From a virus, in IMG/VR virus record IMGVR_UViG_3300027280_000002, positions 1 through 64,000 of that record: 64,000 nucleotides of DNA. One strand, written 5' to 3'. The notes beneath the pieces are model-generated. The model did no database searches and had not been told where the DNA came from. It worked only from the letters and a program-made list of their open reading frames with translations. Made by a program: the position numbers and the translations under genes. Positions 2,852 to 64,000 of this stretch are shown here, piece after piece. Each line of letters starts with the position of its first letter. Within the stretch, counting starts at the first letter, position 1.

Positions 2852-3199
2852 ATGGTTACATACAAATGGAATTGCAAAACAGTAGACGTACACCCTCAAG
2901 AAGAAGGTGAAGCAGATGTAGTGTATAATGTACACTGGATATTAACAGCTAGTTCAACTCAACAAAAACCTGATTCTGGAGGAATGCCTTATACAGCTAG
3001 CAGTATAGGAACACAGATTTTATCTTTAAATAAAAGTAGTACATTTATACCATTTGAAGATCTAACTAACGAAACAGTTGTTGAATGGACCAAAGCTGCT
3101 ATAGGTGAAGAACAAGTGGCTGCTCTTGAACTTAGTTTAGAAAAAGAAATAGCAGCTATTATAACTCCAACTAGTGTTGTTCGTACAATCGGAGAGTAA
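2852..3199 (+). CDS. Conserved small phage protein typically found next to tail fibres
   Basis: Pattern YKW..VD...VVYNVHW...FIPFEDLT..TVVEW; A-rich start context. Confidence 0.6.
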   Translation: MVTYKWNCKTVDVHPQEEGEADVVYNVHWILTASSTQQKPDSGGMPYTASSIGTQILSLNKSSTFIPFEDLTNETVVEWTKAAIGEEQVAALELSLEKEIAAIITPTSVVRTIGE

Positions 3200-6100
3200 T
3201 TAGTTTATTGACTTCTTTAATAACATCAGAAGATTTAATTTGAGTATGACATTCGAACTGTCTTTCTGTACCCTTATGTAAAGGGCACCAGTTCCAATCA
3301 CCTTTATCAAATTTAAATTCAGCTTTGTTCCAACATCCGTTGCACACTGCTGGATTTGTTATTCTGTGACATTTAAATTCATGATCTTCTGAGGTAAAGT
3401 TAGATATCATTATTACTTGTTTTTCAAGGGCCCAAGCTAACCAACTTAGTCCACTAGATAATCCTATAAAGAACTCACTCTGTCTTATACAATCAATTGT
3501 ATACTCAATAGATGTATCTGATATTTTTTCACAATTATCAAAAGGGTTATCTTCTATAGAAGTGTTAATTATTTTGTAACCTTCTTTGTGTAAAAAGTTT
3601 ATTACATCTTGCCAGCCTTCTCTGGTCCAAAACTTACAACCTGATGTAGAATTAGTAGCTATAGTGACATACTCCTGACCTTCTATAACATTATTAAAGT
3701 TAGATTTAATTTTAGGAGTGAGTTCTTTATATTCTAAACCTAATATATTTGTAGCTGTTTGTTGTAATGGAATTGTGTTTGGTAATTGAGGTTCTTTATT
3801 ATTATCATAGAACCAACCTATCTTGTACATAGCGTAGACATCAGCTACGTCTGATCCTGGCTTAACAAACTCTAAACTTGGATACACATCTTCGAATAAA
3901 AAGTTTTTAAATGTACTGACAGTCACCGTACATTTGTGTTTCTGCTGAAACTCTAAAACATAAGGAATCCATGCAATAGAATCACCTAGAGATGAACTAT
4001 CAAAGGAAATATATACTTTCTTTCCTTCTAAGTTTAACTTCTCATCTAATATAAGTAAGTTGTCTTTATATATTACTGTCCGCCAATCAACGTAATAGGA
4101 TCTATCTAATTTTACCCAATTGTTTACACCTATAACATTATCATAAACTAACTCAGCACCATTATACATCTCTATCTTAAACTTACTTTCAGTAGTTCCT
4201 TTTATATCTATGTATGGACCTAATGCAAAGTCACGATATATATTATAGTTTAATACTTTAGAATGTTTAATCTTCTTAGTCTCTAAAACTTTTGTATAGA
4301 AATCAACATGATTTTTAGTAAAGTTTGAAATACCACTATCTTTACTTACACTCTTTACATCATGAGAGTTGTTTAGCATTGTTTCTAGTTGACTTTTTAT
4401 ATTGACACTGTCTATGTCAGTGATATAGGGAGTAAACATATTTTCATATTGAGGTAGATTTCTTGCAAGGATTGGTAAATGCCAGCTAATTGCTTCTCTA
4501 AGTACTAAAGGGTTGCATTCCCAAGTAGAATTAAACATAAACACATCTGCAGCTAACATAAATTTGTCAACATCATCTCTTTCTCCCCAAACAGTTACAT
4601 TGTTAGGTAAGTCTACCATTAATGGGCCCCAATAGTCTTGAAAGTTACCAGCTTGGTTACCTACAAAATGAAATTCTACATTTGGAAGTTCTCTTGCTAG
4701 AGATATTCCCTCTCCTTGATTCTTACCTTTTGTCCATAATCCAACATTTAAAACATGTTGCTTAGTTACATCTAAGTCTAATTCAAATTTAGCATTTAAC
4801 TTAGATTGCCAATCAAATATTTTTGGATCTATGGGATACTCTATTACTTTCTTTAAAGATTTTGAATTGGAAAAAGTAGTTAAATGATAAGGAGTACAGA
4901 AAGCATAACCATCAGGATGATACACCTTTTCTACGTCTGGTTTAAATGATACATTATGACAGGTTTCAACTATCTTATAAGATCTACAGTTACAATACAA
5001 AGAGTCTACTAATTTTTTATCATCTAAACATTCAGACATTTCATCTATATGTACTAGATCTATACGATTGTCCTTTATGATTTTTTGTAAGTCTGATTCT
5101 CCCTCCCCTAAGGTAAAAAAGTTTGAAACAATATCTTTTATTTTATTCTTTTGTACAACATAGTCATTGCTATAATTTTTATGTTCTACTACAAAGATCT
5201 CGTATTCATATTTGAGTGCTTCTATTCTCTTTAAAAGAAATGCAGGCATGCCACCAGTAGAAAGATGGGGTGCTAAAAATAAAATCCTACGTTTAAATTG
5301 ATTCATTGTTGCTTCCATAAACTTTGGACGCTTTTCTCCATGTAATGCTAATAGTTCTTCTTTTTTAGCAGGTAACCTTACCCACTCATCTAAGTATTGA
5401 GTCTCTCCAGTAAAAGGTAAATCATGTGTATCTACAAATTTGCTATAGTTCATGTACATATAAGGTAAACCTTCAGTAATTTCATGATGCCAAAGTAATA
5501 TATTAGCTAAGGTTTCTTCATGATATGGTGCATAGTATTGAGGGTTCTTTAACACTTTGGGGTGATTGCACATCCACTCCCATTCATCTAAGAAATCCAT
5601 ACAAAGATTTGATGCTACGAAATAGCCTGTTTGATGGTAAGATGATCGATTAGATTGATCTATACCAAATAACTCACATGCTGGATGCTCTAAACTTTTA
5701 TGTAACTCTTCTTTTGTTTCTACTCCTCCTCTTCTATTAATAAATAGATAATCATATATACCTTTTACAAAATATGGGTTACTGGATGTATTAGGAAAAT
5801 AGCTAAATATTGAATCTATATAAGGGGTGACTACTGTATCTGAGTCAATGTAGGCAATAGTGTCAGCATAATTATTTAAAGCATGTTTAACAATAGACGG
5901 CCTTTGAATAAGTAACTTGTACACTCTACTATCGTTACGATCTATGTAGTCAGTTTGTTTAATAGTGGATCCTGTATAGGTCCATTTATGTGTAATTGTA
6001 GCACCTTCTACGTCTCGATTATCATTTAATAGATATACTATAACAGGAAGTTTACTAACTTGATTTATAGACTTAACTGCAGCAGATACAGTATGATAAT

Positions 6101-6644
6101 ATGAACTATTTGCATATAAAACATATGCCTTTTCCATCTTCTCCTTTTTATAAATATAGTATCCGTAGTATTGATTAGAGTATATAGAAACAAGTTTAGG
6201 GTATCGACTTTTCATTACCTCAGGAGTTAAGTCAACTTGGTGATGTGTTTCATAAATGTTACCTTCATGCTCACCTTGTTCCATTTTATAAGGAACAGCT
6301 ACTAAACATTCTTTTCCTAAATCAATTATTTTTTCAATTAGATCCACTGCTTCTTTCTCAGGTATGTGTTCTAAAACATCTCCTAGAATAATAAAGTCAT
6401 AATCTTTTATACTAAAGTTTAATATGTCTTCTACATATACGTTATCATACTTCTCAAGAAGGTCATACTTAGCTATATACGGTTCATATATTTCTACAGC
6501 ATCTATGTGATAGCCAGATTCACGAAGTAAGTTTGAGTAAGTTCCAACTCCAGGACCTACATCAAGTACTCTTTTGTGTGTTGGAATGTTATCTTTTACC
6601 CAGTTAGTAACATCATTCTTAAAAAACTCAAAGCTATATGGCAT
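3171..6644 (-). CDS. Four-domain fusion: class I SAM methyltransferase + GT-A glycosyltransferase + GT4 (GT-B) + Aah/TibC-type heptosyltransferase
   Basis: VLDVGPGVG and ILGDVLEH (MTase); YIDSD (DxD); HLSTGG, NVGLWTKGKNQ and STWECNPLVLREA (GT4); SLGDSIAW, FIGLSSGLSWLAWA and CNGCW..WCP..FEC (BAHT/GT9-like). ATG at 6644 preferred over TTG at 6665. Confidence 0.85.
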   Translation of the reverse strand: MPYSFEFFKNDVTNWVKDNIPTHKRVLDVGPGVGTYSNLLRESGYHIDAVEIYEPYIAKYDLLEKYDNVYVEDILNFSIKDYDFIILGDVLEHIPEKEAVDLIEKIIDLGKECLVAVPYKMEQGEHEGNIYETHHQVDLTPEVMKSRYPKLVSIYSNQYYGYYIYKKEKMEKAYVLYANSSYYHTVSAAVKSINQVSKLPVIVYLLNDNRDVEGATITHKWTYTGSTIKQTDYIDRNDSRVYKLLIQRPSIVKHALNNYADTIAYIDSDTVVTPYIDSIFSYFPNTSSNPYFVKGIYDYLFINRRGGVETKEELHKSLEHPACELFGIDQSNRSSYHQTGYFVASNLCMDFLDEWEWMCNHPKVLKNPQYYAPYHEETLANILLWHHEITEGLPYMYMNYSKFVDTHDLPFTGETQYLDEWVRLPAKKEELLALHGEKRPKFMEATMNQFKRRILFLAPHLSTGGMPAFLLKRIEALKYEYEIFVVEHKNYSNDYVVQKNKIKDIVSNFFTLGEGESDLQKIIKDNRIDLVHIDEMSECLDDKKLVDSLYCNCRSYKIVETCHNVSFKPDVEKVYHPDGYAFCTPYHLTTFSNSKSLKKVIEYPIDPKIFDWQSKLNAKFELDLDVTKQHVLNVGLWTKGKNQGEGISLARELPNVEFHFVGNQAGNFQDYWGPLMVDLPNNVTVWGERDDVDKFMLAADVFMFNSTWECNPLVLREAISWHLPILARNLPQYENMFTPYITDIDSVNIKSQLETMLNNSHDVKSVSKDSGISNFTKNHVDFYTKVLETKKIKHSKVLNYNIYRDFALGPYIDIKGTTESKFKIEMYNGAELVYDNVIGVNNWVKLDRSYYVDWRTVIYKDNLLILDEKLNLEGKKVYISFDSSSLGDSIAWIPYVLEFQQKHKCTVTVSTFKNFLFEDVYPSLEFVKPGSDVADVYAMYKIGWFYDNNKEPQLPNTIPLQQTATNILGLEYKELTPKIKSNFNNVIEGQEYVTIATNSTSGCKFWTREGWQDVINFLHKEGYKIINTSIEDNPFDNCEKISDTSIEYTIDCIRQSEFFIGLSSGLSWLAWALEKQVIMISNFTSEDHEFKCHRITNPAVCNGCWNKAEFKFDKGDWNWCPLHKGTERQFECHTQIKSSDVIKEVNKLITLRLYEQH

Positions 6645-6662
6645 ACTATTTGATTTTAATAA

Positions 6663-6670: not shown

Positions 6671-6746
6671 TAAAAATAAATTTTACTTTATGCTATATTA
6701 TGCATGATGTTTCTGTCATATATTTTCCTATGTTAGAAAGAGTTCT

Positions 6747-8611: not shown

Positions 8612-8749
8612 ATGGCAATACCACCAAGACAGCAAGGCTGGGGACAAGTAGAAGTTCTTCTTTGGAATATTTCAAAGCAATTAGAGCGATTGATTCAGGT
8701 GACTGGTGCACAAAACACCACCACCACTACAACAACAGCAGCACCGTAA
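8612..8749 (+). CDS. 45-aa peptide with C-terminal poly-Thr tag (not in ORF track)
   Basis: Manual translation: MAIPPRQQGWGQVEVLLWNISKQLERLIQVTGAQNTTTTTTTAAP*. Promoter and A-rich start lie upstream. Confidence 0.8.
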   Translation: MAIPPRQQGWGQVEVLLWNISKQLERLIQVTGAQNTTTTTTTAAP

Positions 8750-8776: not shown

Positions 8777-9796
8777 ATGAAAGATTTAAAATTTATCTGT
8801 GCTCAACCAGACGACACTTACTATACATGGCAAGTTCACATGTGGTTAGAGAGCTTAAAAGAAATAGGACAAATACACAATGCAATCGTATTAGTCTATA
8901 CACCACAGAAAAGACTCTTTAATGATAAATGGGATCAGATAACAAAACTGTATCCAGAAGCTGAGTTTAATTTCTATAAAGATGAACAAGGTGATCTATC
9001 TAATCTTATTGGTATTTATATACCTGTACTAAGACCTTGGTTACTTTGGAAATACTGGTCAGACCGTCCAGAAATGTCAGAACATGCTGTATTTTACTGT
9101 GATTCTGATATACTTTGGACAGATAAATTTAATATTGATGAATACATACAAGATGATGTATGTTATCTTTCAGATACTAATAGTTACATAAACGCTCAGT
9201 ATTTTGATAGTAAAGTGCATCAGGTTTTACCTGAAAAGTTAGAAGAGTATAAAGCTAGAGATGTGCTTTCTGAAATAGGAAGTGTAATAGGCATAAGTAG
9301 ACAACTTGCTGAAGATAATAATGAAAACTCAGGAGGTGCTCAGTATCTTCTTAAAAATGTAGATGTTTCTTTTTGGAGTAAGGTTATGAATGATTGTATA
9401 TTAATCAGGACCTACCTTCAAAAAATAAATAGAGAATTCTTTAAAGATGAAAATGCTGGTTATCAAAGTTGGTGTGCAGATATGTGGTCTGTATTATGGA
9501 ATCTTTGGGTAAAAGATCAAGAAACTAAAGTAATACCAGAAATGGGATTTGCTTGGGGCCCAGATCCATTAACTAAATTGGAGACACATCCTATATACCA
9601 CAATGCTGGCATTGTAGCAACAGAACAAGGTGGATATCCTTGTTTTTATAAAGGTAAATATCACTCAGGGACTAATCCTATGACTGATCCTCACTTAGAT
9701 GTTGTGTTAAACAACGAAAAAAGTATGAAGCATTGTACTGGTTACTATGCTAAAAAATTGAATGAATTAAAAATTAAATATAACCTAATTTACTAA
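8777..9796 (+). CDS. GT-A glycosyltransferase resembling plant HPAT / peptidyl-serine galactosyltransferase (GT95/GT96-like)
   Basis: YYTWQ, YIPVLRPW, FYCDSDIL (DxD) and WCADMW occur in the same order as recalled plant motifs YFDWQ, YVVLNRPW, ILDADMI and WISEMY. Confidence 0.65.
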   Translation: MKDLKFICAQPDDTYYTWQVHMWLESLKEIGQIHNAIVLVYTPQKRLFNDKWDQITKLYPEAEFNFYKDEQGDLSNLIGIYIPVLRPWLLWKYWSDRPEMSEHAVFYCDSDILWTDKFNIDEYIQDDVCYLSDTNSYINAQYFDSKVHQVLPEKLEEYKARDVLSEIGSVIGISRQLAEDNNENSGGAQYLLKNVDVSFWSKVMNDCILIRTYLQKINREFFKDENAGYQSWCADMWSVLWNLWVKDQETKVIPEMGFAWGPDPLTKLETHPIYHNAGIVATEQGGYPCFYKGKYHSGTNPMTDPHLDVVLNNEKSMKHCTGYYAKKLNELKIKYNLIY

Positions 9797-9814: not shown

Positions 9815-10021
9815 ATGGGAAGCATAGACAAACGTCCATTAAAAGCTTTTGTTAGATTCGATGGATCTGGCAGAGTAGTAGCAGGTAGCTTAATCTTACG
9901 TAGGAAAATACCAAAAGTAGGAAACTGGCAAGAAATTGTAGCATACGAGTGTTGCAATCCAACAACTACTACTACTACTACAGCTGCGCCAACAACCACT
10001 ACCACTACTACAGCTGCGTAA
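9815..10021 (+). CDS. 68-aa protein with duplicated C-terminal poly-Thr tag
   Basis: Ends CCNPTTTTTTTAAPTTTTTTTAA*; A-rich start context. Confidence 0.8.
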   Translation: MGSIDKRPLKAFVRFDGSGRVVAGSLILRRKIPKVGNWQEIVAYECCNPTTTTTTTAAPTTTTTTTAA

Positions 10022-12061: not shown

Positions 12062-12706
12062 CTATTTTTTTAATAATCTTCTTTTCCAAGTTGATACGTT
12101 AGACGCATGTTCTAAATAATACTTCCACTCTTCAGGTATACAACAATCATCTATATACCAAGGTCTGTGCTGTATACAATAAGGTCTGTCTAATCTTATT
12201 GCATCATAAGAAAATGGCATATTAGCTCTATATAATGCAAATGTAGTATCTACATGAGCATCCCATCCCAAATCAATTTTATTCTCCCAGTACTTAGCCT
12301 CATGTGCATATGATTGTTTACCTATATCTGTATTGGGTAAGTCTTCTATTTCTAATGAGAACCCTATTTTAGGGGAACCTGGTTGGTTTATAGCATGTAA
12401 CATTACATCTAACCAATCATCAGGAACATTATCATATATACAATCTGTATCCGCTACAATAAAATAACCTTTACGTAAATGTTTATACTTAGAAGCCCAT
12501 GCTGAGTAAGGACCCTCATTCTTTGCATAGTGAATTTCTTCAGTAATTGTTTTATAAAATTCTAACAATGGAGGATAGGTAGATTCTTGATCAAGTATAT
12601 GAATCTCTACTCTAGGCTCTTTTCTTAAGAACTCTAATGTATTTTTAAGAGTAGTCAAAAGATTCCTATTAATTAGTAGTGCCTTTATTTTGCTAGTTGT
12701 GTACAA
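12062..12706 (-). CDS. GT2-like glycosyltransferase
   Basis: IHILDQESTYPPL, FIVADTD (DxD), AHVDTTFALY. Confidence 0.75.
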   Translation of the reverse strand: MYTTSKIKALLINRNLLTTLKNTLEFLRKEPRVEIHILDQESTYPPLLEFYKTITEEIHYAKNEGPYSAWASKYKHLRKGYFIVADTDCIYDNVPDDWLDVMLHAINQPGSPKIGFSLEIEDLPNTDIGKQSYAHEAKYWENKIDLGWDAHVDTTFALYRANMPFSYDAIRLDRPYCIQHRPWYIDDCCIPEEWKYYLEHASNVSTWKRRLLKK

Positions 12707-13265
12707 ATAAAACTTTATTTATTTTAAACATTTCTTTTTCTGTAAACTTCTTTTTAAACTGTTCTACAAACCAACCGTCAGCATCATATTTTACTCCAAG
12801 ATCTATTTGCTGAGCTAAGTCTCTTCTAGTAGCAAAAGCTCCCATATCTATTTGATTAGTGTGAGGGTGACATTTAAAGTATTCATAATTATAATGAGAG
12901 TGTACCATATCCCAATAAATAAACCCAGGAGAGTTAGCTGTTGCTGTTCGTAATTCAGCAACAAAGTTTGGTGTATAGTAGTTATCATCTCCAGTCATTA
13001 TTATATATTGAGCATCTGACATTTGTTTACCACGCTCTCTTAATGTATGTCCCCAATCATTATACCGCTTATCCATAAAGGTGCAATATATTCTAGGGTC
13101 ATTGAAACTCTTTACTATATCAGATATTCTTTCACTTTCTGTATCATCTATAACCACATGAGCGCTCCAGTCAGCATCTGTTTGAGCTGTAAGAGAAGTT
13201 AGCATGCAGATTAAAGGCTCATGCCTATTATATGTAGGAATAATAAACTCAACTAGAGCTGACAT
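12693..13265 (-). CDS. GT2 glycosyltransferase
   Basis: FIIPTYNR, VVIDD, MTGDDNYY, ADGWF. Confidence 0.85.
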   Translation of the reverse strand: MSALVEFIIPTYNRHEPLICMLTSLTAQTDADWSAHVVIDDTESERISDIVKSFNDPRIYCTFMDKRYNDWGHTLRERGKQMSDAQYIIMTGDDNYYTPNFVAELRTATANSPGFIYWDMVHSHYNYEYFKCHPHTNQIDMGAFATRRDLAQQIDLGVKYDADGWFVEQFKKKFTEKEMFKINKVLFVHN

Positions 13266-14055
13266 AATCTTTTAGCATTTGTTTATAATCCTGTTTCCAT
13301 GAAGGCACTAAATGTACATCACCTGTAGGTATCTTACCAGCTTTACGCTGTGATTCTACATGAGCACTATGACGTTTAATGATATCAGGTCTTGATCCAT
13401 CATCTGTACCCATACCGGATTGATGATAACCTCTACCTCCCCACATATAAAACCACGAAGCTTCACTGTCCGGCATCTTAACATCTACTTTACCACCTAA
13501 AGCATGGATTCTATTAGTTAAGGTCATGTCACCTCCTGCGTTCTCTAGAGGACTTTTACCTATTCTTTCCCATACATCTTTACTATATACAATACCAGAG
13601 TTACCTACACCACTTATAGCTGTAATAGATGGCTCATTGTAGAACACACCTGTTTCCCAGTGAATAATATTAGTATCCTTCTTCCAGTGTCTAGCTACGT
13701 TGTTTAGATGATTAGGTAAGGCCACATCATCATCATCCCATACAGCAATAAGCTCCCCTTTGCATCTTTCAATAGCATAGTTCTCTTTCTCACCTATAAG
13801 AGAAAAAGTTTCATCAAGATTATATATTGTGACTTGTGGATGAGGATAGTGTAACTTCTGAAGAGGGTAATCATTGACTATTATTAGCTCGCACTTATCT
13901 TTTGGATAGTCTTGAATAAGGAAACTATGTAAAGATTCTACTAATAAATCTGTTCTTCCATAAGTTATACACTTACAAGAAATAAAAGGCAACTCTTTGT
14001 TTTCTATAACATGAGCTGCCTCTGTTCCTGATATTATTTCATAACTCATTACCAA
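13249..14055 (-). CDS. GT2 glycosyltransferase
   Basis: ISCKCITYGR, SFLIQDYP, ELIIVND, AVWDDDD. Confidence 0.85.
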   Translation of the reverse strand: MVMSYEIISGTEAAHVIENKELPFISCKCITYGRTDLLVESLHSFLIQDYPKDKCELIIVNDYPLQKLHYPHPQVTIYNLDETFSLIGEKENYAIERCKGELIAVWDDDDVALPNHLNNVARHWKKDTNIIHWETGVFYNEPSITAISGVGNSGIVYSKDVWERIGKSPLENAGGDMTLTNRIHALGGKVDVKMPDSEASWFYMWGGRGYHQSGMGTDDGSRPDIIKRHSAHVESQRKAGKIPTGDVHLVPSWKQDYKQMLKDYVSSS

Positions 14056-26753: not shown

Positions 26754-27114
26754 TTTGATTTTTATTAGTTATGTATATTTCTTTAAAGTTTAAATCCACT
26801 TTTGCTATTGGATCGTTTTCATTAGGCACTCTGAACTCATACGTTTTCCAGGTATTAGTCCAAGTTCTATTAGTATAAGCATTTGTACCTGTTGTTGTCT
26901 TCATTACCATAGCAACTCTACACTTTGTAGCAACGTATCGTGTTTTACCATTGTGCCAAGTTTTTAGTCTACTAACTCGTGGAGCTTCCTCCACTATATA
27001 ATATCTCATCTCTGAGCCTTGGTTAGTAATAATTTCATCTCCTGGTTGTAATGTCCCAGCGTCTGTTGTTAATGTTCCTCTCATTTTTCTGTTTTTTAAA
27101 ATGGATTTTCGCAA
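26746..27114 (-). CDS. Hypothetical protein (SH3/KOW-like start)
   Basis: LQPGDEII; true start is probably a downstream Met. Confidence 0.7.
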   Translation of the reverse strand: MRKSILKNRKMRGTLTTDAGTLQPGDEIITNQGSEMRYYIVEEAPRVSRLKTWHNGKTRYVATKCRVAMVMKTTTGTNAYTNRTWTNTWKTYEFRVPNENDPIAKVDLNFKEIYITNKNQNG

Positions 27115-51928: not shown

Positions 51929-53494
51929 ATGGCAATTCAAACAATCCCAGGTTTAACTGGTTTTACTTATGCACGAGTAGCGTCTATGGATGCACGTGCT
52001 GTAGGTAAACTTACAGATTCAAACCACTTAGAGTCTTTTCACTCTACTGAGCCTGCAGATTATGATAAAAAGATTATCAGTCTGTATACTCAATCTTCAT
52101 TGTATAGCAATGATTTCCTAGACATGATCAATAAGAGTACACCTTACTATATTGATACAAACAGTGATTCATGGAAATGGAACATTGCAGTACCTTACAA
52201 ATTCCCAAAAATTATTGACATTCCTAAATCTACGCAAGATACTATTGCTGCTACAGGTAAAGTAGGAATCGATGGACAAGAGTTCGAATTAATATTGAGT
52301 TCTAACGAATTCTCTAAGAATGCGATTATTTCTGTTGGTACACGTCAGTACGGACCACGTTTTTACGTGATCAAAGATCCACAACCATGGAACATGGGAT
52401 GGATATATAAATTTACACTTGTTAGTGATAACCCAACAGTAGATTTCGTTAATACTACATTTTTAACACAAGGTGTTGAATTAGAATTAGTAGATGCTGC
52501 AATTGGAGAATTCGATCAAGATTTATTAGGTCTTCCAAGATTAGGTGAAGAGATCACTATGTTTGAATCATTAGGTTCTGCATATGGATATGAGCACAAA
52601 ATTACGGAATGGGCTGATGATAAAATGTTAAGAGACTCTTCTGGGAAACCATTAGATATTTTAGTATATGCACCACAACGACGTAATCAACTTCCTTTAA
52701 GAAGAGAAGATGTTAAGTGGGAGCCGTTCATTGAATTCTGGATGCGTAAATCTATGTTAGAATTAAAAGTTAAACGTATGATCTGGGCTTCTCCAGGTAC
52801 AGTTAAGACTAATGGTTCTAAGCAAGAAGTAAAAAGAACTTCTGCTGGTGTATACCACAGAATGAGAAATAACGGAAACTTAGTACAATACAATAGAGGT
52901 GAATTCTCTGCAAACTTGATTCGTTCAGTATTTGGAGATTTATTCTACAGAAGAGTGGATGTTAAAGACCGTAGAGTTAAGATGTATACTAATGAGGCTG
53001 GATTCGATGTATTCCAACAAGCTCTTAAGAATGATGCACTTAATTCTGGACTTACTTTCATGGCAGATTCTGGAAACAGATATATGCAAGGTGAAGGACA
53101 GAATATCACTTATAACTTTGCATTTGACGCAATGGTTACAAGAGAAACAGGTCGTGTTGAATTGATTCACTTAAAAGAACTTGATTTACCACAAACTAAT
53201 TTAGAATTTGGACAAAACATGAAATCTACTCCAGTATTTATGGTGTTTGATGTTTCTCCACTATCTGATGGTGCAATGGTAAACAATATCCGTGAAGTTC
53301 GTATGAAGGGTGCACCTTCTATGACATGGGGTTATATTGATGGTACTCGTTCCCACTTAGGCTTTGCAAAGTCTCAAGGAATGCAGTCTGCTAACAAATT
53401 CCCAGGTTATGAATTATGGATGAAAGATCGATGTGATGTATTCATTGAAGATTTATCAAGAACTGTACTTATAGAAGAAATTCCACAGTTCTAG
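51929..53494 (+). CDS. Major capsid protein (crAss-like)
   Basis: 521 aa; canonical position after portal and scaffold; codon bias suggests high expression. Confidence 0.85.
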   Translation: MAIQTIPGLTGFTYARVASMDARAVGKLTDSNHLESFHSTEPADYDKKIISLYTQSSLYSNDFLDMINKSTPYYIDTNSDSWKWNIAVPYKFPKIIDIPKSTQDTIAATGKVGIDGQEFELILSSNEFSKNAIISVGTRQYGPRFYVIKDPQPWNMGWIYKFTLVSDNPTVDFVNTTFLTQGVELELVDAAIGEFDQDLLGLPRLGEEITMFESLGSAYGYEHKITEWADDKMLRDSSGKPLDILVYAPQRRNQLPLRREDVKWEPFIEFWMRKSMLELKVKRMIWASPGTVKTNGSKQEVKRTSAGVYHRMRNNGNLVQYNRGEFSANLIRSVFGDLFYRRVDVKDRRVKMYTNEAGFDVFQQALKNDALNSGLTFMADSGNRYMQGEGQNITYNFAFDAMVTRETGRVELIHLKELDLPQTNLEFGQNMKSTPVFMVFDVSPLSDGAMVNNIREVRMKGAPSMTWGYIDGTRSHLGFAKSQGMQSANKFPGYELWMKDRCDVFIEDLSRTVLIEEIPQF

Positions 53495-55404: not shown

Positions 55405-56541
55405 ATGAGTACATTCGCATTAACCACGTTATTCGTGGTGCCAGTAGGTCAGACAACTCTGCCTAGCACTGGTTCGACTCAAGACCTTACAAAAGGTCAA
55501 GTAGGATTTTTCAATAGCTCCTATGCTACAGTAAACGCTGGAACAATAGCTGCTTCTCCGTATTTCTACGTAGCACAAGGTAGAGAAAACACCTATTTAC
55601 AAGGATCAAAAAGATCTGACAAAATTAAAGGATGCCCAACAGCTGGTGCTTCTTGCAACTCTAACGTTACAGAATGGTACAAAGCTTCTGGTTGTGATAC
55701 TGCTGCTAACCAAATTACTGACGTTACAGACTTTAAAGTACAATGTGGTGAAATAGTAACATTAACACTACGTGCTTTTTCTAGTTATATTAATACTTTA
55801 TACTTCAACGGATTTACACGTTCAGTAACCGTACAAGCTCCATGTTGTGAATGTGGAGGTGATGTATGTACTGATGTTGACACTAACGCATTAATCAACT
55901 CTTTAATTGCTAAGTTAAACCAAAGCGCTCCTGGAGATAATCCAGATAACGTATCTTTTAAAAGTTTCTTTACTTTTGAAAATGTTGGTGGAACAATACT
56001 AAGAATCCACGGTAAACCATTAACTAAATATGGACAACCATGTGACGTTGCTGCATTCCCATTTGAATATGATAGAATGTACTTCAACACATTTATATAT
56101 GATGGACCAGCTACTACTGCTGATTTTATTGTTGCTGATTCTTGTAACATTGTTGCAACCTCTACCATAACTCAGACTTCTACATATCCTTCAGGACTTT
56201 CTGCTGAATGGAAACAAGCAGAAATTAATTACTATAGCTACCAAGCTGGGTATTTAAAATCTCTATATAGAATGGGTGGATACAACGAGAACTTTGAGTC
56301 TTATGTGACTGAAGGAACTGTATATGATAGCTACTATATTCGTTTTAATGAATATGATAAAGGAGCATACCAATGGGGTGACTATATCCATCAAGATTCT
56401 ATCGTGATGATTGCTGTCCCAAATGAAGCGTCAGTTGCTGGTATTGCTACTGCTGTAGAGGCTGTCTTAGTTGGAGCTTTAGGGCCTGTTGTTGATAACA
56501 ATGAGTGTATCACAACTACAACTACTACAACTGCTGCTTAA
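55405..56541 (+). CDS. Putative auxiliary capsid/decoration protein with C-terminal poly-Thr tag
   Basis: Beta-rich and Cys-rich; capsid-like codon bias; ends NECITTTTTTTAA*. Confidence 0.65.
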   Translation: MSTFALTTLFVVPVGQTTLPSTGSTQDLTKGQVGFFNSSYATVNAGTIAASPYFYVAQGRENTYLQGSKRSDKIKGCPTAGASCNSNVTEWYKASGCDTAANQITDVTDFKVQCGEIVTLTLRAFSSYINTLYFNGFTRSVTVQAPCCECGGDVCTDVDTNALINSLIAKLNQSAPGDNPDNVSFKSFFTFENVGGTILRIHGKPLTKYGQPCDVAAFPFEYDRMYFNTFIYDGPATTADFIVADSCNIVATSTITQTSTYPSGLSAEWKQAEINYYSYQAGYLKSLYRMGGYNENFESYVTEGTVYDSYYIRFNEYDKGAYQWGDYIHQDSIVMIAVPNEASVAGIATAVEAVLVGALGPVVDNNECITTTTTTTAA

Positions 56542-57317: not shown

Positions 57318-60300
57318 ATGTTATCACCAAGACTAACGAATTGTAAAGAATGTGCAAACATTCCTGATTTACTTAGAAAAATAGATTGTAAATTAGCAGA
57401 GCTAGGAAACAACTTATACAACAATGTTGTATTTATGTTGAACAGACCTATTGCTGTTAGTCAGATTTCAGAACTGTTAGTATACAAACGTGTACTAACT
57501 TTTCGTTATTGTGATACACATTATGCATCAGGATGTCCGGAGGTAAGTACAGAAGATATTGCAAGCAAGGTTATTCGTCTTACTGCTGGTTGTGTTTCAT
57601 TATGTAATGAACCTACAGTGTGTGAGATTACAACATGTGCTATAATTCCTTGTCCTAATCCAACAACAACAACTACAAGTACCTCTAGTACCAGCACTAC
57701 TACAACCACTAGCACCACAGCAACACCAACCACCACCACTACTACAACGATAACCCCAGATTGTAGAATAGAAGGATGCTTTGATATTATAGCTTTATCT
57801 ACTACAACTACTTCAACATCTTCAACATCTTCGACTACTACTACTAGTACAACTGTTGTACCGTTTGATTGTGCAGAGCCATTTAACTTAAGTTCTCCTG
57901 AAGCCTTTCCTAATGCTATCACTGGAAATGGAACTAAAGTATTGAGTAATGGAGTTTTGCTAACTACATCGTATACTCCAAATACGTTTAACCAACCTCC
58001 TATCTATGTAGCTGGCGTCCCAGGCACAACAGAAGTATGTAATGGAGCATATGTAACTTCTCAGTCTGGTGGACAAGGAACATTGTCAATGCGTGGAGGT
58101 TCAACTGTTGTAATGGACTTTAATCCTCCAATAAATGCTATAGCGCTTGTCACTCAGGGTTATGGTTCTAGTAAAGATCCATCAGCGCAAGAGACTGTGG
58201 TTATAACATCTACTGATGTAATTGTTGCTACTGAATTAACAGCATGTGGTGACTATGCAACAACACAAATAAGTCAAAATGAAATTAATTTAACTGGATC
58301 ACAAGCTCTTTATCCAAACTATTCTGCAGGAGTTACAGCAATTTCACCAATTAGTGGAGGTATAAGTCAATTACAAATTACAATTAACCCACCTGCTGAT
58401 GCATTAGCTGGTATTGGTTTTGATTTTTATGTATGTCCTGGCAGTAGTCCAATAACTACGACAACAACTAGCACGTCTAGTACAACTACTACTACAACAA
58501 GTAGTTCAACTAGTACAACTACTAGTACGACTACAATTGTACCAACAACAACTACAACTACAACAATTGCTGCATGTGTGGATTGTATTCCTAGTGATGT
58601 AACAATTGGAACACAAACCTGGAGTAAGTGTAATTTAAATGTTGATACATATTTAAATGGTGATCCAATTCCAGAAGTAACAGACCCAAGTGCTTGGGTA
58701 GGATTAACTACAGGAGCTTGGTGTTACCATAGCAATGATTCTGCAAATGAACCAACTTATGGAAAATTATATAATTGGTTTGCTGTTAATGATCCAAGAG
58801 GGTTAGCTCCTGCAGGTTATCATATTCCAACTAATGATGAACTAATTACATTAATTAATTATATTGACCCAGCTTCATCAGGAGGTGCAACTGTACCAAA
58901 TAATGCAGGAGGTCCATTAAAAGAAGTACAATTCTGTCATTGGGATGCACCTAATACTGCAGCAACAAATAGTTCAGGTTTCACAGGTCTTCCAGGAGGT
59001 TTTCGTGAGCCTCTCTCTGGGGTGTTTGGTGGTATTAATGAGGGTGGTACATGGTGGAGTAGTACAGACGAGATAGTAGGGCCTGATGCTTTTGCTTTTA
59101 GTTTATACAATAATCAGACTTGGGCGTATAGAAATGACTGGAATCAAAATCACGGTTATTCAGTTCGTCTAATAAAAGATACAGGAACTACAACAACCAC
59201 CACTTTAGCACCAACAACCACTACAACTAGTACATCTAGTACATCAACTACAACTAGTACAACAACTGTTGCTCCTACTACAACTAGTACAACAACTGTT
59301 GCTCCTACTACCACTACTACAACTACAGTGGTGGCACCAACAACAACTACAACCACAACGGTAACACCTACTACAACTACAACAACAACTATTACACCAC
59401 TAGTTGGATGTCTAGAGTTTGACTATTTAAGTCTTATAGTTAGTAGCGATTGGATTCTAGATCCACCTACTGACTCTCTATTTGCTCGAGCAGATTATTT
59501 TACAGGACCAACTACAAACACAACAAGTTATACCAACTGGTCTCAAGTTCCAAATACCAACTATGATGTAGTATTTAATATAGGAGGAGTAGACTATACA
59601 GCAGTGTATCAATTTATCAATGTTGGAACTGGAGGAGTTACTGTTCCTTATGGTAAATTTAGTGTTAACAGTGTCAACTTCTCAGCTATGTCTACATTCC
59701 AATTTTCAAAGATAGATGCAAATGGTAATGACTTATCATCAATACTTTCTACCTTTGATCATACAACTGGAGATGGTTATAAAGTTACTGCATATGGAGA
59801 TTGTACAACACCAACAACAACAACTACAACCACTGTAGCTCCAACAACAACAACTACAACCACCTTACCTGTTTTCCTTTGTACAGATCCACTACTAACA
59901 GTATCTTTACCTGATGGAATTGTAGGAGATCCACTGAATGGAAGTGTTGTATATGATGGACTCAATCTAGCTATAACTGGTTACACTTATGGTGGGGGTA
60001 ATACAACTGTATATATTGCTGGAACAGTTGCTTATACGCTTGCATTTATTGTTCCTTCAGGATATAGTAACTCAGGATCTGCTACTGGTTGCGCTGTTGC
60101 AGCAACTGGTACAACACCAACAACTACAACTACAACAACTGTTGCTCCTACTACTACAACTACAACCACTAGTGCAAAAAGCTACGATATTAATTGGCAA
60201 GTTGATGGAGGAGGAAATGGATTTAAAGAAGCAGAATTACAATTATTTAAAAATGGAGCGAGTGTAGTAACTCAAGTTATTACTAATGGCACGCCTTCGG

Positions 60301-60920
60301 TACAAGGATTGTTTTCAAGTTCTAACGGTGATGTTATTAATGCTAAACTTACTACTAAGAACTTAACAAGTGAAGAGACTCAAGTGCAGAATAGTTTTTC
60401 ATTGATAGGAGCAGGAGGTGGAGGTCTGCAAGAATTAGATACAGGTATACTACAACCACCTGCTGGTGGAGTCACAAATTCACTTGCGACTAGTTTTAGT
60501 ACTGGATATACTCAACCTGGTGTTACTAATGGTCCTTTATTATTATTTAAAGTAAATCAAGAACAAATAGCATCATCTGAAATTACTATGTCGCTTACTA
60601 ATAACGGTGCTAATTTTAACTTTGAAATAGAAGATAATGATCAGCCAGGTGATCCTGTAGTATTGAGTATACCAACAACTGGTCCACTTTGGAATGGTAA
60701 TTATTATTATGACTTCTTAGTTGGTAGAGAATATACAGTTACATTTCCATATTCAAACAACGAAGTTGGAGGTGTATCTACTGAACTAGTTATAAGCGGT
60801 GGTGGAATGACACCATTTAGCGATCAGGTGGATAATCCTTCTGGTTCAGTAAACACTATAACCCATACATTTACAGTATTAAATGCTACATCAATAGTAA
60901 TTGAAGCATTTGAATATTAA
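57318..60920 (+). CDS. 1200-aa modular virion surface protein with poly-Thr linkers and a Fib_succ_major (FISUMP) domain
   Basis: Cys-rich N-terminus and six Thr/Ser tracts. VTIGTQTW..NL, YGKLYNW, GLPGG, WWSST and GYSVRL at about 58596-59181. Confidence 0.8.
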   Translation: MLSPRLTNCKECANIPDLLRKIDCKLAELGNNLYNNVVFMLNRPIAVSQISELLVYKRVLTFRYCDTHYASGCPEVSTEDIASKVIRLTAGCVSLCNEPTVCEITTCAIIPCPNPTTTTTSTSSTSTTTTTSTTATPTTTTTTTITPDCRIEGCFDIIALSTTTTSTSSTSSTTTTSTTVVPFDCAEPFNLSSPEAFPNAITGNGTKVLSNGVLLTTSYTPNTFNQPPIYVAGVPGTTEVCNGAYVTSQSGGQGTLSMRGGSTVVMDFNPPINAIALVTQGYGSSKDPSAQETVVITSTDVIVATELTACGDYATTQISQNEINLTGSQALYPNYSAGVTAISPISGGISQLQITINPPADALAGIGFDFYVCPGSSPITTTTTSTSSTTTTTTSSSTSTTTSTTTIVPTTTTTTTIAACVDCIPSDVTIGTQTWSKCNLNVDTYLNGDPIPEVTDPSAWVGLTTGAWCYHSNDSANEPTYGKLYNWFAVNDPRGLAPAGYHIPTNDELITLINYIDPASSGGATVPNNAGGPLKEVQFCHWDAPNTAATNSSGFTGLPGGFREPLSGVFGGINEGGTWWSSTDEIVGPDAFAFSLYNNQTWAYRNDWNQNHGYSVRLIKDTGTTTTTTLAPTTTTTSTSSTSTTTSTTTVAPTTTSTTTVAPTTTTTTTVVAPTTTTTTTVTPTTTTTTTITPLVGCLEFDYLSLIVSSDWILDPPTDSLFARADYFTGPTTNTTSYTNWSQVPNTNYDVVFNIGGVDYTAVYQFINVGTGGVTVPYGKFSVNSVNFSAMSTFQFSKIDANGNDLSSILSTFDHTTGDGYKVTAYGDCTTPTTTTTTTVAPTTTTTTTLPVFLCTDPLLTVSLPDGIVGDPLNGSVVYDGLNLAITGYTYGGGNTTVYIAGTVAYTLAFIVPSGYSNSGSATGCAVAATGTTPTTTTTTTVAPTTTTTTTSAKSYDINWQVDGGGNGFKEAELQLFKNGASVVTQVITNGTPSVQGLFSSSNGDVINAKLTTKNLTSEETQVQNSFSLIGAGGGGLQELDTGILQPPAGGVTNSLATSFSTGYTQPGVTNGPLLLFKVNQEQIASSEITMSLTNNGANFNFEIEDNDQPGDPVVLSIPTTGPLWNGNYYYDFLVGREYTVTFPYSNNEVGGVSTELVISGGGMTPFSDQVDNPSGSVNTITHTFTVLNATSIVIEAFEY
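59247..59311 (+). repeat. Perfect 30-bp tandem duplication (x2) within a Thr linker
   Basis: ACTACAACTAGTACAACAACTGTTGCTCCT repeated. Confidence 0.85.
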
Positions 60921-60942
60921 TAACAAATAAAATAAAAAAATT

Positions 60943-62025: not shown

Positions 62026-62037
62026 AATAAAAACAAA

Positions 62038-62349
62038 ATGGCATACTTACCTGTAAATCCTTGTTGCACAGATGTAGTTTCAAACACTCCTTGTGGATGT
62101 TCAAGCACTACAAGCAATAATCCTTGTGCAACTGGGGTACATTATTCAAAGTCTATTACATACAATGGACCTGTATTACCTTGTTCAAATGTGCAACCTT
62201 GTGATGATTTAAACATTGCTTTGTCTAAAATTGACGCAATTATTTGTACATTGGTAAACCAACAAGCAATCAATACATCTGAAATTGCTACTATAAAGCA
62301 GCAAGTAATAAGTATAAATCAAACATTAACAACTTGTTGTGACTCATAA
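62038..62349 (+). CDS. Cys-rich coiled-coil virion protein
   Basis: PCC, PCGC, ITYNGP.LPC resembling the N-terminus of the preceding gene; ends TCCDS. Confidence 0.7.
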   Translation: MAYLPVNPCCTDVVSNTPCGCSSTTSNNPCATGVHYSKSITYNGPVLPCSNVQPCDDLNIALSKIDAIICTLVNQQAINTSEIATIKQQVISINQTLTTCCDS

Positions 62350-62597
62350 TGGAAGCAATCTTAACACTAAATACAGCAGGAAATAATACTGGATCTTTTA
62401 ATCTGTTTTCAGACGTAGATGGATTTAGTGTTGCTTTTCAAACAAATGTAACTAAAACCCAGTTATTGAATGGGTATACAGCTGTGATGCCTGATTACAC
62501 TACTATAGTAAAAGTAGCATCAGGTTCAGTTTGTAAAAATAGTATTGAGATAACACTAGAACAAACAACCACAACAACCACCACAATAACACCGTAG
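62349..62597 (+). CDS. 82-aa protein with C-terminal poly-Thr tag
   Basis: Ends EQTTTTTTTITP*; paralogous to the N-terminus of the next gene. Confidence 0.75.
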   Translation: MEAILTLNTAGNNTGSFNLFSDVDGFSVAFQTNVTKTQLLNGYTAVMPDYTTIVKVASGSVCKNSIEITLEQTTTTTTTITP

Positions 62598-62601
62598 GAC
62601 A

Positions 62602-64000
62602 ATGACAATACTTATAACATTAACTTTAGCAGGCATAGATACAGGTCCATTTGATCTATATTCTGATGCAGATAATTATCAAAATGCATTTGAGACTAAT
62701 GTTTCCAGACAAGATCTATTGAATGGTTACACTTCTAATAATGCCCCTGTTGGAACTACTACTGTTAGGTTAGATAGTACAAATCAGACTTGCGGTTCAG
62801 TGGATATATATTCTTGTGTTAGACCAAATTGTGATTTTACAGGAGAGATAATTTGTGATATTACAACAACTACAACCAGTACATCTTCATCTTCAACTAC
62901 AACTACTACTACTACATCAAGTGGACCTGGACCAATTACTTCACTATGTCTTTGGTCAACTCTTAACGAAGGAACCTCCGGAGAACTAGGAGTATATAAT
63001 ATAGACACCAATGTAGTAACTACAGTATTAGTTCCTAATGACTTTTTAGTAACCCAAGGTGTAACTAGACCTATATGTAGTACACAAAATAAACTTTGGT
63101 TAGCTAGTGAAACAGACCTTACCCAGAACAACTTTATAATTAGAGAATATGATGTAACTTTTACATCAGGTAATGTAGGTTTATCTTTTACAAGAGACAT
63201 TACTGTTAGCACACAAGGTATCCTATCATACCCTGGTTATTCTAGAGTTGGTTCTGAATGTACGGCACTAACTGCTATTAATGATACAAGTATAATAATA
63301 GTTTTTGGTGGACCAACTGCTACTGTTATTTCACCAGATGTATGGGGTTTTACTATTGATATAAGTCAAACAGGTAATATTGCTAAAAATCTAACATCTA
63401 GTATTGGAAGAACTGTTAAACCTGTAATAAATACCTATGGTAAGGTTGTTTCAAACCCTAGACTACTATATCTTAATAACGGTGATGTTATTACTAGTAT
63501 GAGGATGGATGGCGAAGTTGATGGTCCTTATAATGGGAATTATCTACAACAATACAACATTTCAAATAATGATCGTATAACTGGAACTATGAAGTTGCAG
63601 GATTTAGGCATTCCAGAATTTACCGTTAATTACACTTCTGAGAAATATATAGATATATTCTCAATAAATAGTAAATTATATGCTCTTCAACCAGAATTAA
63701 ATAGAGTATATGAAATATCACAAACTCCTGACTACCAACAACAATCATCAAATCTTGTAGGTACAAATGTAAAAAGTTTATCTACAACTAGTGGTTGTGC
63801 AGATATTACCCTTTATGCAGAACCAGAATGTGAATCTACTACAATACCTAATATGTACGACCAAGCAGGAGATGTGTACATAGGTCCAGTACCGTTTACG
63901 TATGCAGGTGTGACTGTTATGGCTAGTAGTACACTTGCTGCTGGATCTAACGGAATTGTTGGTACTGGTGGAGGGGTGACACTATATAAGTTGTGCGCTT
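62602..64000 (+). CDS. Modular virion protein with Thr/Ser linker; runs off the end of the window
   Basis: MTILITLTLAGIDTGPFDLYSDAD...LLNGYT...CDITTTTTSTSSSSTTTTTTSS. No stop seen, which explains its absence from the ORF track. Confidence 0.8.
   Translation, partial: MTILITLTLAGIDTGPFDLYSDADNYQNAFETNVSRQDLLNGYTSNNAPVGTTTVRLDSTNQTCGSVDIYSCVRPNCDFTGEIICDITTTTTSTSSSSTTTTTTTSSGPGPITSLCLWSTLNEGTSGELGVYNIDTNVVTTVLVPNDFLVTQGVTRPICSTQNKLWLASETDLTQNNFIIREYDVTFTSGNVGLSFTRDITVSTQGILSYPGYSRVGSECTALTAINDTSIIIVFGGPTATVISPDVWGFTIDISQTGNIAKNLTSSIGRTVKPVINTYGKVVSNPRLLYLNNGDVITSMRMDGEVDGPYNGNYLQQYNISNNDRITGTMKLQDLGIPEFTVNYTSEKYIDIFSINSKLYALQPELNRVYEISQTPDYQQQSSNLVGTNVKSLSTTSGCADITLYAEPECESTTIPNMYDQAGDVYIGPVPFTYAGVTVMASSTLAAGSNGIVGTGGGVTLYKLCA

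Follow-up and report, generated by a model that had tools for sequence, protein, structure and literature searches.

An uncultured, distantly crAss-like phage with a 111-kb genome probably runs a tag-based virion O-glycosylation system, in which a soluble enzyme would modify short runs of threonine. The window analyzed here is a 64,000-nucleotide stretch of this genome. Since the phage has poly-Thr surface proteins and an enzyme that, in all lineages checked, was found only with such tags, its particle is very probably sugar-coated. The enzyme is encoded at 8777-9796 on the plus strand, and the proposal of the preliminary description that a phage enzyme glycosylates the Thr tracts of virion proteins is strongly supported for it by comparative evidence, namely a predicted GT-A fold with a DxD motif, co-occurrence with the tracts, and adjacency to tagged genes in unrelated lineages. 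We found no published description of this pairing of enzyme and poly-Thr tag in the literature.

The genome encodes 17 exact Thr7 runs, against 3e-4 expected from its Thr content of 7.1%, and no Thr run of eight or more. For residues other than Thr, no run longer than five was found. The DNA pattern (ACN)x6 matched 39 times in the whole genome, every time on the late-gene strand, compared to one match for the reversed control pattern. The Thr codons in the tracts are a mixture of ACA (84), ACT (73), ACC (27), and ACG (3) and, therefore, the tracts are not simple DNA repeats. A chance origin is excluded, and the 17 T7 runs, the mixed codons, and the single strand establish the tracts as protein-level features. 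All six Thr-tract ORFs named in the preliminary description were recovered with their start positions, along with the mixed codon usage and the nearly identical C-terminal tags it had reported, which read T7-AAP at 8612-8749, T7-AAP-T7-AA at 9815-10021, and T7-AA at 55405-56541. A mucin-like feature was also seen, as Pro/Thr/Ser tandem units of the form P-T7-(V/A/I)(A/T)P are repeated in the protein at 57318-60920 and in the tails.

The tagged proteins are all encoded on the plus strand. The 378-aa protein at 55405-56541, which ends in CI-T7-AA, is by its predicted structure a homologue of the outer capsid auxiliary protein of ΦcrAss001 with a disordered C-terminal T7-AA tail. Its AF2 model (pLDDT 71 overall, below 50 in the tail) matched 7qof_a (333 aa) in Foldseek with an E value of 3.7e-9 and a probability of 1.00. 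This ΦcrAss001 protein, gp36, has 333 residues and lies in the outer capsid layer, where each asymmetric unit contains nine copies (PMC10172136). All but one of 80 relatives (69-100% identity) retain the Thr tail, with a length that varies between T5, T7, and T7+T7. The 1200-aa fibre-like protein at 57318-60920 has a FISUMP domain at residues 428-621 (TIGR02145, 4.4e-18) and 15 runs of T5-T7 across six Thr/Ser-rich linkers. Paralogous appendage proteins carry Thr tracts as well. An 82-aa protein (62349-62597) combines an N-terminal module of about 70 residues with a tail ending in Q-T7-ITP. The same module is common to the ORFs at 62602 and 66736. The former is a 921-aa appendage protein (62602-64000 in the window, ending beyond it at 65367) in which the module is followed by a T5-STSSSS-T7 linker and distal domains. 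Outside the window, tracts of Thr also occur in the proteins at 66736-67824 and 72561-79253. A fibre longer than 1350 aa, in which collagen-like (GTS/GTT/GSS)n repeats occur, is encoded in the genome too.

Two candidate acceptors abut the enzyme gene itself. Directly upstream, a 45-aa mini-protein (8612-8749) ends in N-T7-AAP, and a Thr-tagged small ORF in this position is conserved in most of 80 related loci. Directly downstream, a 68-aa mini-protein (9815-10021) ends in ECCNP-T7-AAP-T7-AA. It belongs to a family with a KPKVGxWxEIxAYECC motif followed by T7-xAP-T7, which is conserved downstream of the enzyme, often in two tandem copies.

The label "crAss-like" used in the preliminary description applies only loosely. 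TerL is 25-27% identical to that of gut Crassvirales and 39% identical to that of a Leptolyngbya phage. The Crassvirales hallmark virion genes were found, comprising TerL, the capsid auxiliary protein fold matching ΦcrAss001 7qof_a, and a 4287-aa ORF. The major capsid protein (51929-53494, plus strand; phrog_11589, 1.4e-37, with PF23898 on its relatives) carries no Thr tract and gave no BLAST match to cultured Crassvirales, and the phage therefore belongs to a distant sister group.

The enzyme at 8777-9796 has 339 residues and is a candidate peptidyl-Thr O-glycosyltransferase. It matched phrog_4417 (1.6e-51) but no Pfam family at E <= 0.1, so its assignment as a glycosyltransferase comes from the predicted fold and not from profile libraries. 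Its AF2 model (pLDDT 97.5) matched the GT-A fold with a Foldseek probability of 1.00. The best structural match was glycogenin (Z 14.8, rmsd 3.7 A, 230 aa), followed by LgtC (Z 14.0), UGGT (13.7), and GlyE (13.1), as well as Skp1 alpha-GalT; the nearest solved folds belong to GT8, GT24, and GT6. The DxD motif (D109, D111) and H275 are invariant in 73 homologues. The predicted fold agrees with the glycosyltransferase call of the preliminary description and suggests a retaining-type GT-A enzyme closest to glycogenin and GT8. This kinship is at the level of the fold, as the GT8 profile PF01501 (Glyco_transf_8) matched neither the protein nor any of the 73 homologues. The proposed kinship to HPAT/SERGT1 found no support, since PF23452 had no match in the protein, nor in the whole genome at E <= 1. 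PF23452 matched three of the 73 homologues (best E 0.012) and 10% of the members of one neighbouring ESM-Atlas cluster, and a remote relationship to the HPAT family may exist. No TM-like segments were seen in the glycosyltransferases of the genome.

Enzyme and tags were then compared across 43 phage genomes, where the expected co-occurrence was found. In the clade of this phage, 26 of 27 genomes have both the enzyme and Thr tracts, among them every one of the 21 with a completeness of 90% or more, and the enzyme-bearing genomes contain 11-55 Thr6 matches each. The exception, G023 (88% complete), has Thr tracts without a match to the enzyme. Neither was found in the 16 outgroup phages (~1.6 Mb), which were Lbo-JY46 and nine of its relatives, Cellulophaga phi17:2 and phi14:2, Flavobacterium Fpv3, and three gut Crassvirales. 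In about 76 of 80 clade loci, small ORFs with Thr tags lie no more than 1.5 kb from the gene of the enzyme.

The pair also extends beyond crAss-like phages to Firmicutes siphoviruses and herelleviruses, and a tblastn search with 8777-9796 matched 77 of 50,697 phage records. In seven of eight cultured phages, with hosts in Enterococcus, Lactococcus, Staphylococcus, Lactobacillus, and Chryseobacterium, the product of the gene immediately upstream of the enzyme gene has poly-Thr at its end or internally, for example in phiFL1A and 1706, where it is the major tail protein, and in PMBT8, Semele, R3.3, MA9V-3, and SAC12B. In SAC12B, the tag consists of TTVKP repeats and not of pure Thr runs. Several capsid proteins of these phages are tagged too. 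Among Firmicutes prophages, 10 of 11 have a poly-Thr-tailed structural gene directly upstream of the enzyme. Thr-rich tails are only weak in Enterococcus phage 9183 and a Sporolactobacillus prophage, although both have the enzyme. In 38 kb phages, the GT-A enzyme is the sole glycosyltransferase-like gene and lies beside tagged capsid and tail proteins, suggesting direct action on the tag. The whole clade represents a single evolutionary event, and the independent support is provided by roughly seven to ten other lineages that were sampled.

The preliminary description had assigned further enzymes to the same system, with GT2 and GT4 proteins extending the glycan and a methyltransferase capping it. 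The inventory largely stands. A 1157-aa fusion (3171-6644, minus strand) has a SAM methyltransferase domain (residues 11-118), a GT4 domain (476-786), and a TibC/Aah-type O-heptosyltransferase domain (802-1148), which Pfam reports as SAM methyltransferase, GT1/GT4, and a GT9-like C-terminus. A further GT-A domain at residues ~110-480 is only weakly indicated; the region gave no Pfam match, and hhalign returned a probability of 20% on a DSD motif. Residues 802-1148 scored 275.5 bits with TIGR04414 (NCBIfam, E 6.3e-82), above the curated equivalog cut-off of 200, which bears out the Aah/TibC family named earlier. They aligned with TibC 4RAP (4.3e-51) over TibC residues 61-386, with LGDSIAW against LGDLLGW and the cysteines of CxGCW..WCP..FEC conserved. 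In the TibC structure, the Asp of LGD is reported to be catalytic and the four cysteines to be iron ligands. The C-terminal domain of the fusion is thus a true protein O-heptosyltransferase domain of the TibC/Aah type. Three short GT2-family ORFs (12062-12706, 12693-13265, and 13249-14055, minus strand) matched only the general PF00535 profile, at 9.4e-5 (22.8 bits, just under the cut-off of 23.3), 4e-9, and 3e-10. An NAD-dependent, GalE-like NDP-sugar epimerase/dehydratase (PF01370, 7.5e-48) lies at 28014-28904 on the minus strand, ending at 28904 and not at 28892. Its best NCBIfam match was GalE (162 bits, cut-off 262), followed by ADP-heptose 6-epimerase (133 bits), and sugar-donor supply is a possible role.

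The fusion and the GT2 genes vary among relatives. The fusion is present in 16 of the 21 complete relatives, in three modular lengths, and the GT2 genes in 18; the five relatives without the fusion and the three without GT2 genes keep 11-50 Thr6 matches. The outgroup genome G028 lacks Thr tracts but has four GT2 genes. Extension and capping of a Thr glycan by these proteins would therefore be optional at best, and these steps are unsupported, as is the mucin-type label of the preliminary description. Tags in relatives do not require the accessory enzymes, which may act on something else, and the TibC-type domain is not the tag enzyme because it is absent from five of 21 tag-keeping relatives. 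The preliminary description had regarded tags kept without the glycosyltransferases as contrary evidence; 8777-9796 tracks the tags in all of the 43 compared genomes except G023, whereas the fusion and the GT2 genes do not.

From these data we infer a mechanism that includes the attachment of sugar, the sugar and its linkage, any extender enzyme, and the purpose of the coat. The soluble GT-A enzyme would be active in the host cytoplasm during late infection and would transfer a nucleotide sugar to the hydroxyl groups of the Thr runs. Its nearest structural neighbours suggest UDP-hexose or UDP-HexNAc as the donor, a need for a divalent metal, and retention of the anomeric configuration. The tag usually comprises seven Thr, often framed as P-T7-xAP. 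It forms the disordered C-terminal tail of the outer capsid auxiliary protein, with some 500 copies on a T=9 head provided that the ΦcrAss001 architecture applies, joins domains within fibres and other appendages, and ends the two mini-proteins whose genes flank that of the enzyme. Head and fibres would in this way gain a layer of glycans, which could provide shielding, stability, or adhesion. The methyltransferase-GT4-TibC-type fusion, the three GT2 proteins, and the epimerase may lengthen or decorate this glycan or modify other virion proteins.

Another possible explanation is a division of labor, which we consider a real prospect, if somewhat short of probable. The GT-A enzyme would place a single sugar or short chain on the Thr tags, and the fusion, GT2 trio, and epimerase would form a separate pathway, directed perhaps at other virion proteins, such as beta-helical or collagen-like fibres, or at surface polysaccharide of the host. 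This would fit the relatives rich in Thr tracts that lack the fusion or the GT2 genes, the outgroup G028, and the small Firmicutes phages that have the GT-A enzyme alone. TibC/Aah enzymes, as known for the family, modify Ser in beta-helical repeats and not Thr runs, and the long fibre of this genome with its collagen-like repeats also agrees with a separate target. However, the GT-A domain is fused elsewhere to GT2, GT6, and GT32 domains and to methyltransferases, which argues that this family often takes part in multi-step glycan assembly, and the enzyme cassette has the fusion and the GT2 genes on its flanks, no more than 10 kb away.

The GT-A fold alone does not prove a protein acceptor, as many GT8 enzymes act on glycans, including most of the solved neighbours (LgtC, WbbM). 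The Thr tracts could then be plain flexible or extended linkers and tails that stay unmodified, with the enzyme acting elsewhere, for example on a glycan of the host envelope, on a small molecule, or on DNA. Ser/Thr/Pro-rich linkers are generally common between domains of fibres and carbohydrate-active enzymes, and many of the tracts do sit between domains. Nevertheless, this reading is improbable. It leaves unexplained the absence of tracts from all 16 enzyme-less relatives and their presence in every enzyme-bearing one, the position of the enzyme gene next to a gene with a poly-Thr tail in unrelated phages whose hosts span three phyla, terminal tails that link nothing, and mini-proteins that are mostly tag; moreover, no TM segment or lipid-carrier enzyme was seen. 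Modification of phage DNA, with sugar-hypermodified bases escaping restriction and the Thr tracts unrelated, is very unlikely, although it is the classical role of phage glycosyltransferases (PMC12619734). No hydroxymethylase-type enzyme was found among ten replication-module proteins scanned, which include ribonucleotide reductase, helicases, a primase, and an exonuclease. The GT-A enzyme tracks the Thr tags and not replication genes, and one domain in the genome belongs to a protein O-glycosyltransferase family. This TibC/Aah family glycosylates proteins in the cytoplasm, and its presence supports protein glycosylation by the phage.

The proposed system shares features with several known ones. 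The enzyme resembles the GT8 proteins glycogenin, LgtC, and GlyE (Z 13-15 over ~230 residues, DxD motif) but differs from them in its 10-13% identity, the lack of a Pfam GT8 match, and some 80 additional residues. Glycogenin modifies a hydroxyl group on a protein but is self-priming on Tyr. GlyE acts in the streptococcal serine-rich-repeat-protein pathway on a cytoplasmically O-glycosylated Ser/Thr-rich repeat protein, where it extends the glycan and does not start it. The fusion shares with TibC/Aah (TIGR04414; PDB 4RAP) a score above the curated cut-off, the LGD motif, and the four cysteines, but its domain is joined to GT4 and methyltransferase domains, the phage has no autotransporter substrate, and its epimerase resembles GalE more than the ADP-heptose epimerase. 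The plant and algal HPAT and peptidyl-Ser galactosyltransferases (GT95/GT96) are peptide O-glycosyltransferases on Pro/Ser-rich repeats, but their PF23452 profile is absent here. As in animal mucin-type glycosylation (GT27 ppGalNAc-transferases, PTS repeats), the acceptor units are Pro/Thr/Ser-rich and tandem and the predicted initiator is a retaining GT-A enzyme. In contrast, no GT27 architecture or lectin domain was found, no GT27 chain was among the top structural matches, and the process would be cytoplasmic and not in the Golgi.

To our knowledge, virion glycosylation has so far been measured only in mycobacteriophages. It is reported for Che8, Corndog, and Myrna (Freeman et al. 2023, Cell Host Microbe 31:1216; as summarised in PMC12619734, PMC12363180, PMC11256854), where phage-encoded cytoplasmic glycosyltransferases, sometimes with a methyltransferase, modify abundant surface proteins of the capsid and tail tube at extensions of their C-termini and a glycan shield is the proposed role. 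Our enzyme is of a different family, as no homology to the Che8 or Corndog glycosyltransferases was found and no Mycobacterium phage is among the 77 tblastn-matching records. The tag here is a pure Thr run with a preferred length of seven, which also serves as a fibre linker and occurs on free mini-proteins. The hosts are Firmicutes and Bacteroidota-type instead of Actinobacteria, and glycosylation is deduced from sequence, predicted fold, and comparative genomics. The two systems are alike in pairing a phage glycosyltransferase with tails on abundant surface proteins, here the T7 tail of the capsid auxiliary homologue and, in other enzyme-bearing phages, tagged major capsid and tail proteins.

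Threonine runs were found by six-frame scanning at the places where the preliminary description had put them, and more lie outside the window. Seventeen runs of seven Thr (T7) were observed in the genome, compared with about 3e-4 expected at its Thr content of 7.1%. Seven was the maximum length, and runs of any other residue did not exceed five anywhere in the genome. The DNA pattern (ACN)x6, referred to here as a T6 hit, gave 39 matches, all on the late-gene strand, while the reversed control pattern gave one. Codons inside the tracts are indeed mixed (ACA 84, ACT 73, ACC 27 and ACG 3) and, therefore, the tracts are preserved as protein features rather than being DNA repeats of recent origin. 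The near-identical tag endings on three unrelated proteins were also found as described: N-T7-AAP, NP-T7-AAP-T7-AA and CI-T7-AA. Across related loci (L008-L175), 348 runs have a length of seven, against 82 of six and 80 of eight, and the runs are frequently framed as P-T7-xAP. This quantised length suggests a preferred unit length, either for an enzyme or for structure.

The tracts are carried by several kinds of protein. The 378-aa protein at 55405-56541 has a predicted fold (pLDDT 71) with a disordered tail, and its model resembles chain a of the ΦcrAss001 capsid (7qof, 333 residues) at E 3.7e-9; by its length and its FliD-like secondary matches, this chain is the capsid auxiliary protein gp36. 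In ΦcrAss001, the outermost layer of the capsid is made of gp36, at nine copies per asymmetric unit (PMC10172136). Among 80 relatives of the 55405-56541 protein, 79 retain its Thr tail, at identities as low as 69% and with a variable length; a search of PDB sequences with the protein gave no match. P-T7-xAP units occur in six linkers of the 1200-aa multi-domain fibre encoded at 57318-60920. The ORFs at 62349-62597, from 62602 onward and at 66736-67824 of the full genome have in common an N-terminal module of about 70 aa, directly followed by the Thr tract, after which the protein either ends or continues into differing domains. The module looks like a common virion anchor with swappable heads. 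Two mini-proteins of 45 aa (8612-8749) and 68 aa (9815-10021) consist mostly of tag and lie on either side of the gene at 8777-9796; PDB sequence searches with them found no head-fibre or other relative. Six Thr-tract proteins were scanned against PHROGs, and the 2230-aa protein at 72561-79253 alone matched, leaving the other five with no match. Separately, an ORF of more than 1352 aa at 107272-111329 of the full genome (L007:9272-13327) is largely composed of collagen-like (G-T-S / G-T-T / G-S-S)n triplets and runs off the contig end. At the other end, a 5'-open ORF at 3-2114 (+) has a tail-fibre chaperone-like C-terminus, and the two are probably one fibre gene across permuted ends. Since the similar Thr/Ser-rich collagen-like repeats of Bacillus BclA are glycosylated, this fibre may be a further candidate acceptor.

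The gene between the mini-proteins, 8777-9796 (+), encodes a 339-aa protein of phrog_4417, a large unannotated family with 747 representative relatives (clusters at 50% identity). Searches of Pfam, NCBIfam and PDB sequences gave no match, and the protein was identified as a glycosyltransferase by predicted fold alone. Its AlphaFold model (pLDDT 97.5) matches glycogenin with Z 14.8 and an rmsd of 3.7 A over 230 residues, as well as other retaining GT-A enzymes, namely LgtC, Skp1 alpha-galactosyltransferase, UGGT and GlyE of the serine-rich-repeat-protein pathway. The DxD motif and one His are both invariant among relatives, and no membrane segment was found. Some relatives are fused to GT6, GT2, GT32, methyltransferase or radical-SAM domains. 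One of these homologues (P0091) carries a radical-SAM/SPASM domain, a pairing characteristic of enzymes that modify peptides (RiPP-type). Kinship with the HPAT/SERGT1 enzymes, whose motifs the preliminary description had named, found no support: the PF23452 profile, tried three ways, gave no significant match, missing both the protein and the genome and matching 3 of 73 homologues at E >= 0.012 only.

The record of 111,329 bp, of which the window is the first 64 kb, is estimated to be 98% complete. Its TerL/portal/MCP block is followed downstream by a 4287-aa ORF, and ribonucleotide reductase, helicases, primase and RecA are encoded in a replication module that runs leftward; this layout is crAss-like in the broad sense. 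TerL is 39% identical to that of Leptolyngbya phage Lbo-JY46, 31% to that of Cellulophaga phi17:2 and 25-27% to those of gut Crassvirales. Lbo-JY46 was the sole MCP match among cultured phages, and a DNA-level search of cultured phages gave one weak match and nothing else. MCP protein searches yielded close relatives only and, thus, outgroups were reached through TerL and the Leptolyngbya phage. The metagenomic clade comprises 630 MCP clusters, with the enzyme on 285 contigs. A FISUMP domain in one fibre hints at, without proving, a Bacteroidota or Fibrobacterota host. A 240-aa protein at 27096-27818 (-), beside the epimerase gene, gave a sub-threshold match to the uracil-DNA glycosylase superfamily (22.4 bits, cut-off 24.3).

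Enzyme and tag occur together in this clade. About 76 of 80 loci have small Thr-tagged ORFs no more than 1.5 kb from the enzyme gene. Among 27 clade records, 26 combine the enzyme with 11-55 T6 hits; every record of at least 90% completeness (21 in total) is among these, and the single exception is 88% complete. None of 16 outgroups (Lbo-JY46, nine of its IMG/VR relatives, two Cellulophaga phages, Flavobacterium Fpv3 and three gut Crassvirales) has the enzyme or any T6 hit. The clade represents one evolutionary event and, therefore, unrelated phages are more telling. Distant homologues of the enzyme (25-31% identity) are present in 77 cultured phage records. Eight cultured phages were inspected, and in seven the gene directly upstream of the enzyme encodes a structural protein with terminal or internal poly-Thr. 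It is the major tail protein in Enterococcus phiFL1A, with C-terminal T5/T6/T7 runs, and in Lactococcus 1706, where it ends in T10-HHD; Staphylococcus PMBT8 has an annotated major tail protein (105 aa) with T16 near the C-terminus. Lactobacillus Semele has two small proteins with T7 tails and T5-S-T3-VKP repeats, Lacticaseibacillus R3.3 a 305-aa protein ending in T6-KAP-T5-SSHA, Chryseobacterium MA9V-3 a 428-aa protein with internal T6 runs, and Lactobacillus SAC12B an Ig-domain protein with TTVKP/TTVAP repeats. Capsid proteins are tagged too in several of these phages. The upstream neighbour ends in poly-Thr in 10 of 11 Firmicutes prophages, where the same ending is often common to 2-3 structural proteins. 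In six of the prophages (L192, L195, L197, L199, L201 and L202), the residues after the run are identical on 2-3 different structural proteins (for example, ..T7-QA twice, ..GA / ..GGG, or ..T7-KG twice), so these residues may be part of the tag.

The 1157-aa fusion at 3171-6644 (-) combines a SAM methyltransferase, a GT4 domain and a C-terminal TibC/Aah-type domain. The last scores 275 bits with the profile of TibC/Aah autotransporter O-heptosyltransferases, above its curated cut-off of 200, and its alignment with TibC (4RAP, E 4e-51) retains the LGD motif and four cysteines; judged by this homology, the genome certainly encodes a member of a protein O-glycosyltransferase family. A fourth, GT-A-type domain is weakly indicated at residues ~110-480, which match no Pfam family, match the GT-A family profile at no more than 20% probability and have Atlas scores of 0.83, which serve as leads at most. 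Of 21 complete relatives, 16 have the fusion and five lack it while retaining 17-50 T6 hits. It comes in three modular forms across relatives (among them G013, G015, G017, G019 and G026): ~1150 aa at full length, ~1010 aa when the methyltransferase is missing, and ~715 aa with GT4 and heptosyltransferase alone. In-frame stop codons within the fusion match were noted in several relatives. GT2 genes, located here at 12062-14055 (-), number 0-4 per genome and are present also in one outgroup without Thr tracts; the epimerase (28014-28904, -) is GalE-like. Since the distribution of these enzymes does not follow the tags, the fusion, GT2 proteins and epimerase would be optional elaborations or serve other targets. 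The proposal that GT2/GT4 enzymes extend the glycan and the methyltransferase caps it is possible in this genome and has no comparative support. The homologue of 8777-9796 is the only glycosyltransferase-like gene in 38-kb phages, which points to the GT-A enzyme as the actor on the tag. A DNA-modifying role for the glycosyltransferases was considered as well and discarded, since no supporting genes were found among the proteins scanned.

Taken together, the co-occurrence and the fold model make it likely that this is a tag-based virion O-glycosylation system with the GT-A enzyme and the Thr tags at its core. The interpretation given in the preliminary description is thus supported in part. A more speculative extension, which we regard as rather doubtful, is that phages use Thr7 (P-T7-xAP) as a portable "glyco-tag" of tuned length, recognised by a single dedicated GT8-like family, and that the pair has spread horizontally among phages of at least three host phyla. 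Acquiring the tag alone would then sugar-coat any virion protein, and the free tagged mini-proteins of 45-68 aa encoded next to the enzyme gene would be head fibres in minimal form, tipped with glycan and plugged into the capsid instead of folded fibre domains. If the enzyme and the tags act together as proposed, sugar-coated virions would be widespread: among the abundant crAss-like phages of the environment, among Firmicutes phages from dairy and gut, and among prophages. Consequences would extend to shielding from antibodies and proteases, to adhesion to mucus or host glycans, to phage-therapy pharmacology and to the reading of cryo-EM maps in which surface density lacks an explanation. In addition, phrog_4417 would gain a function, and cytoplasmic O-glycosylation would have a genetically encoded tag of very small size, possibly of use in bacterial glyco-engineering. 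Cultured phages carry the enzyme-tag pair, making it directly testable.

A description of this enzyme-tag system was not found in literature on poly-threonine, glycosylated tail proteins or PAS-stained capsids. To our knowledge, virion glycosylation by phage-encoded enzymes has been experimentally shown only for a few mycobacteriophages, and theirs is the closest known system. As summarised in three reports, phage glycosyltransferases glycosylate the C-termini of mycobacteriophage capsid and tail-tube subunits (PMC12619734, PMC12363180, PMC11256854). The system proposed here would follow the same logic. However, the enzyme belongs to another family, with no Mycobacterium phage among the 77 matches to 8777-9796. 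The tag consists purely of Thr, with seven as the favoured run length, and is found in linkers and on free mini-proteins as well. Compared to the mycobacteriophage system, the module described here has a much wider host range.
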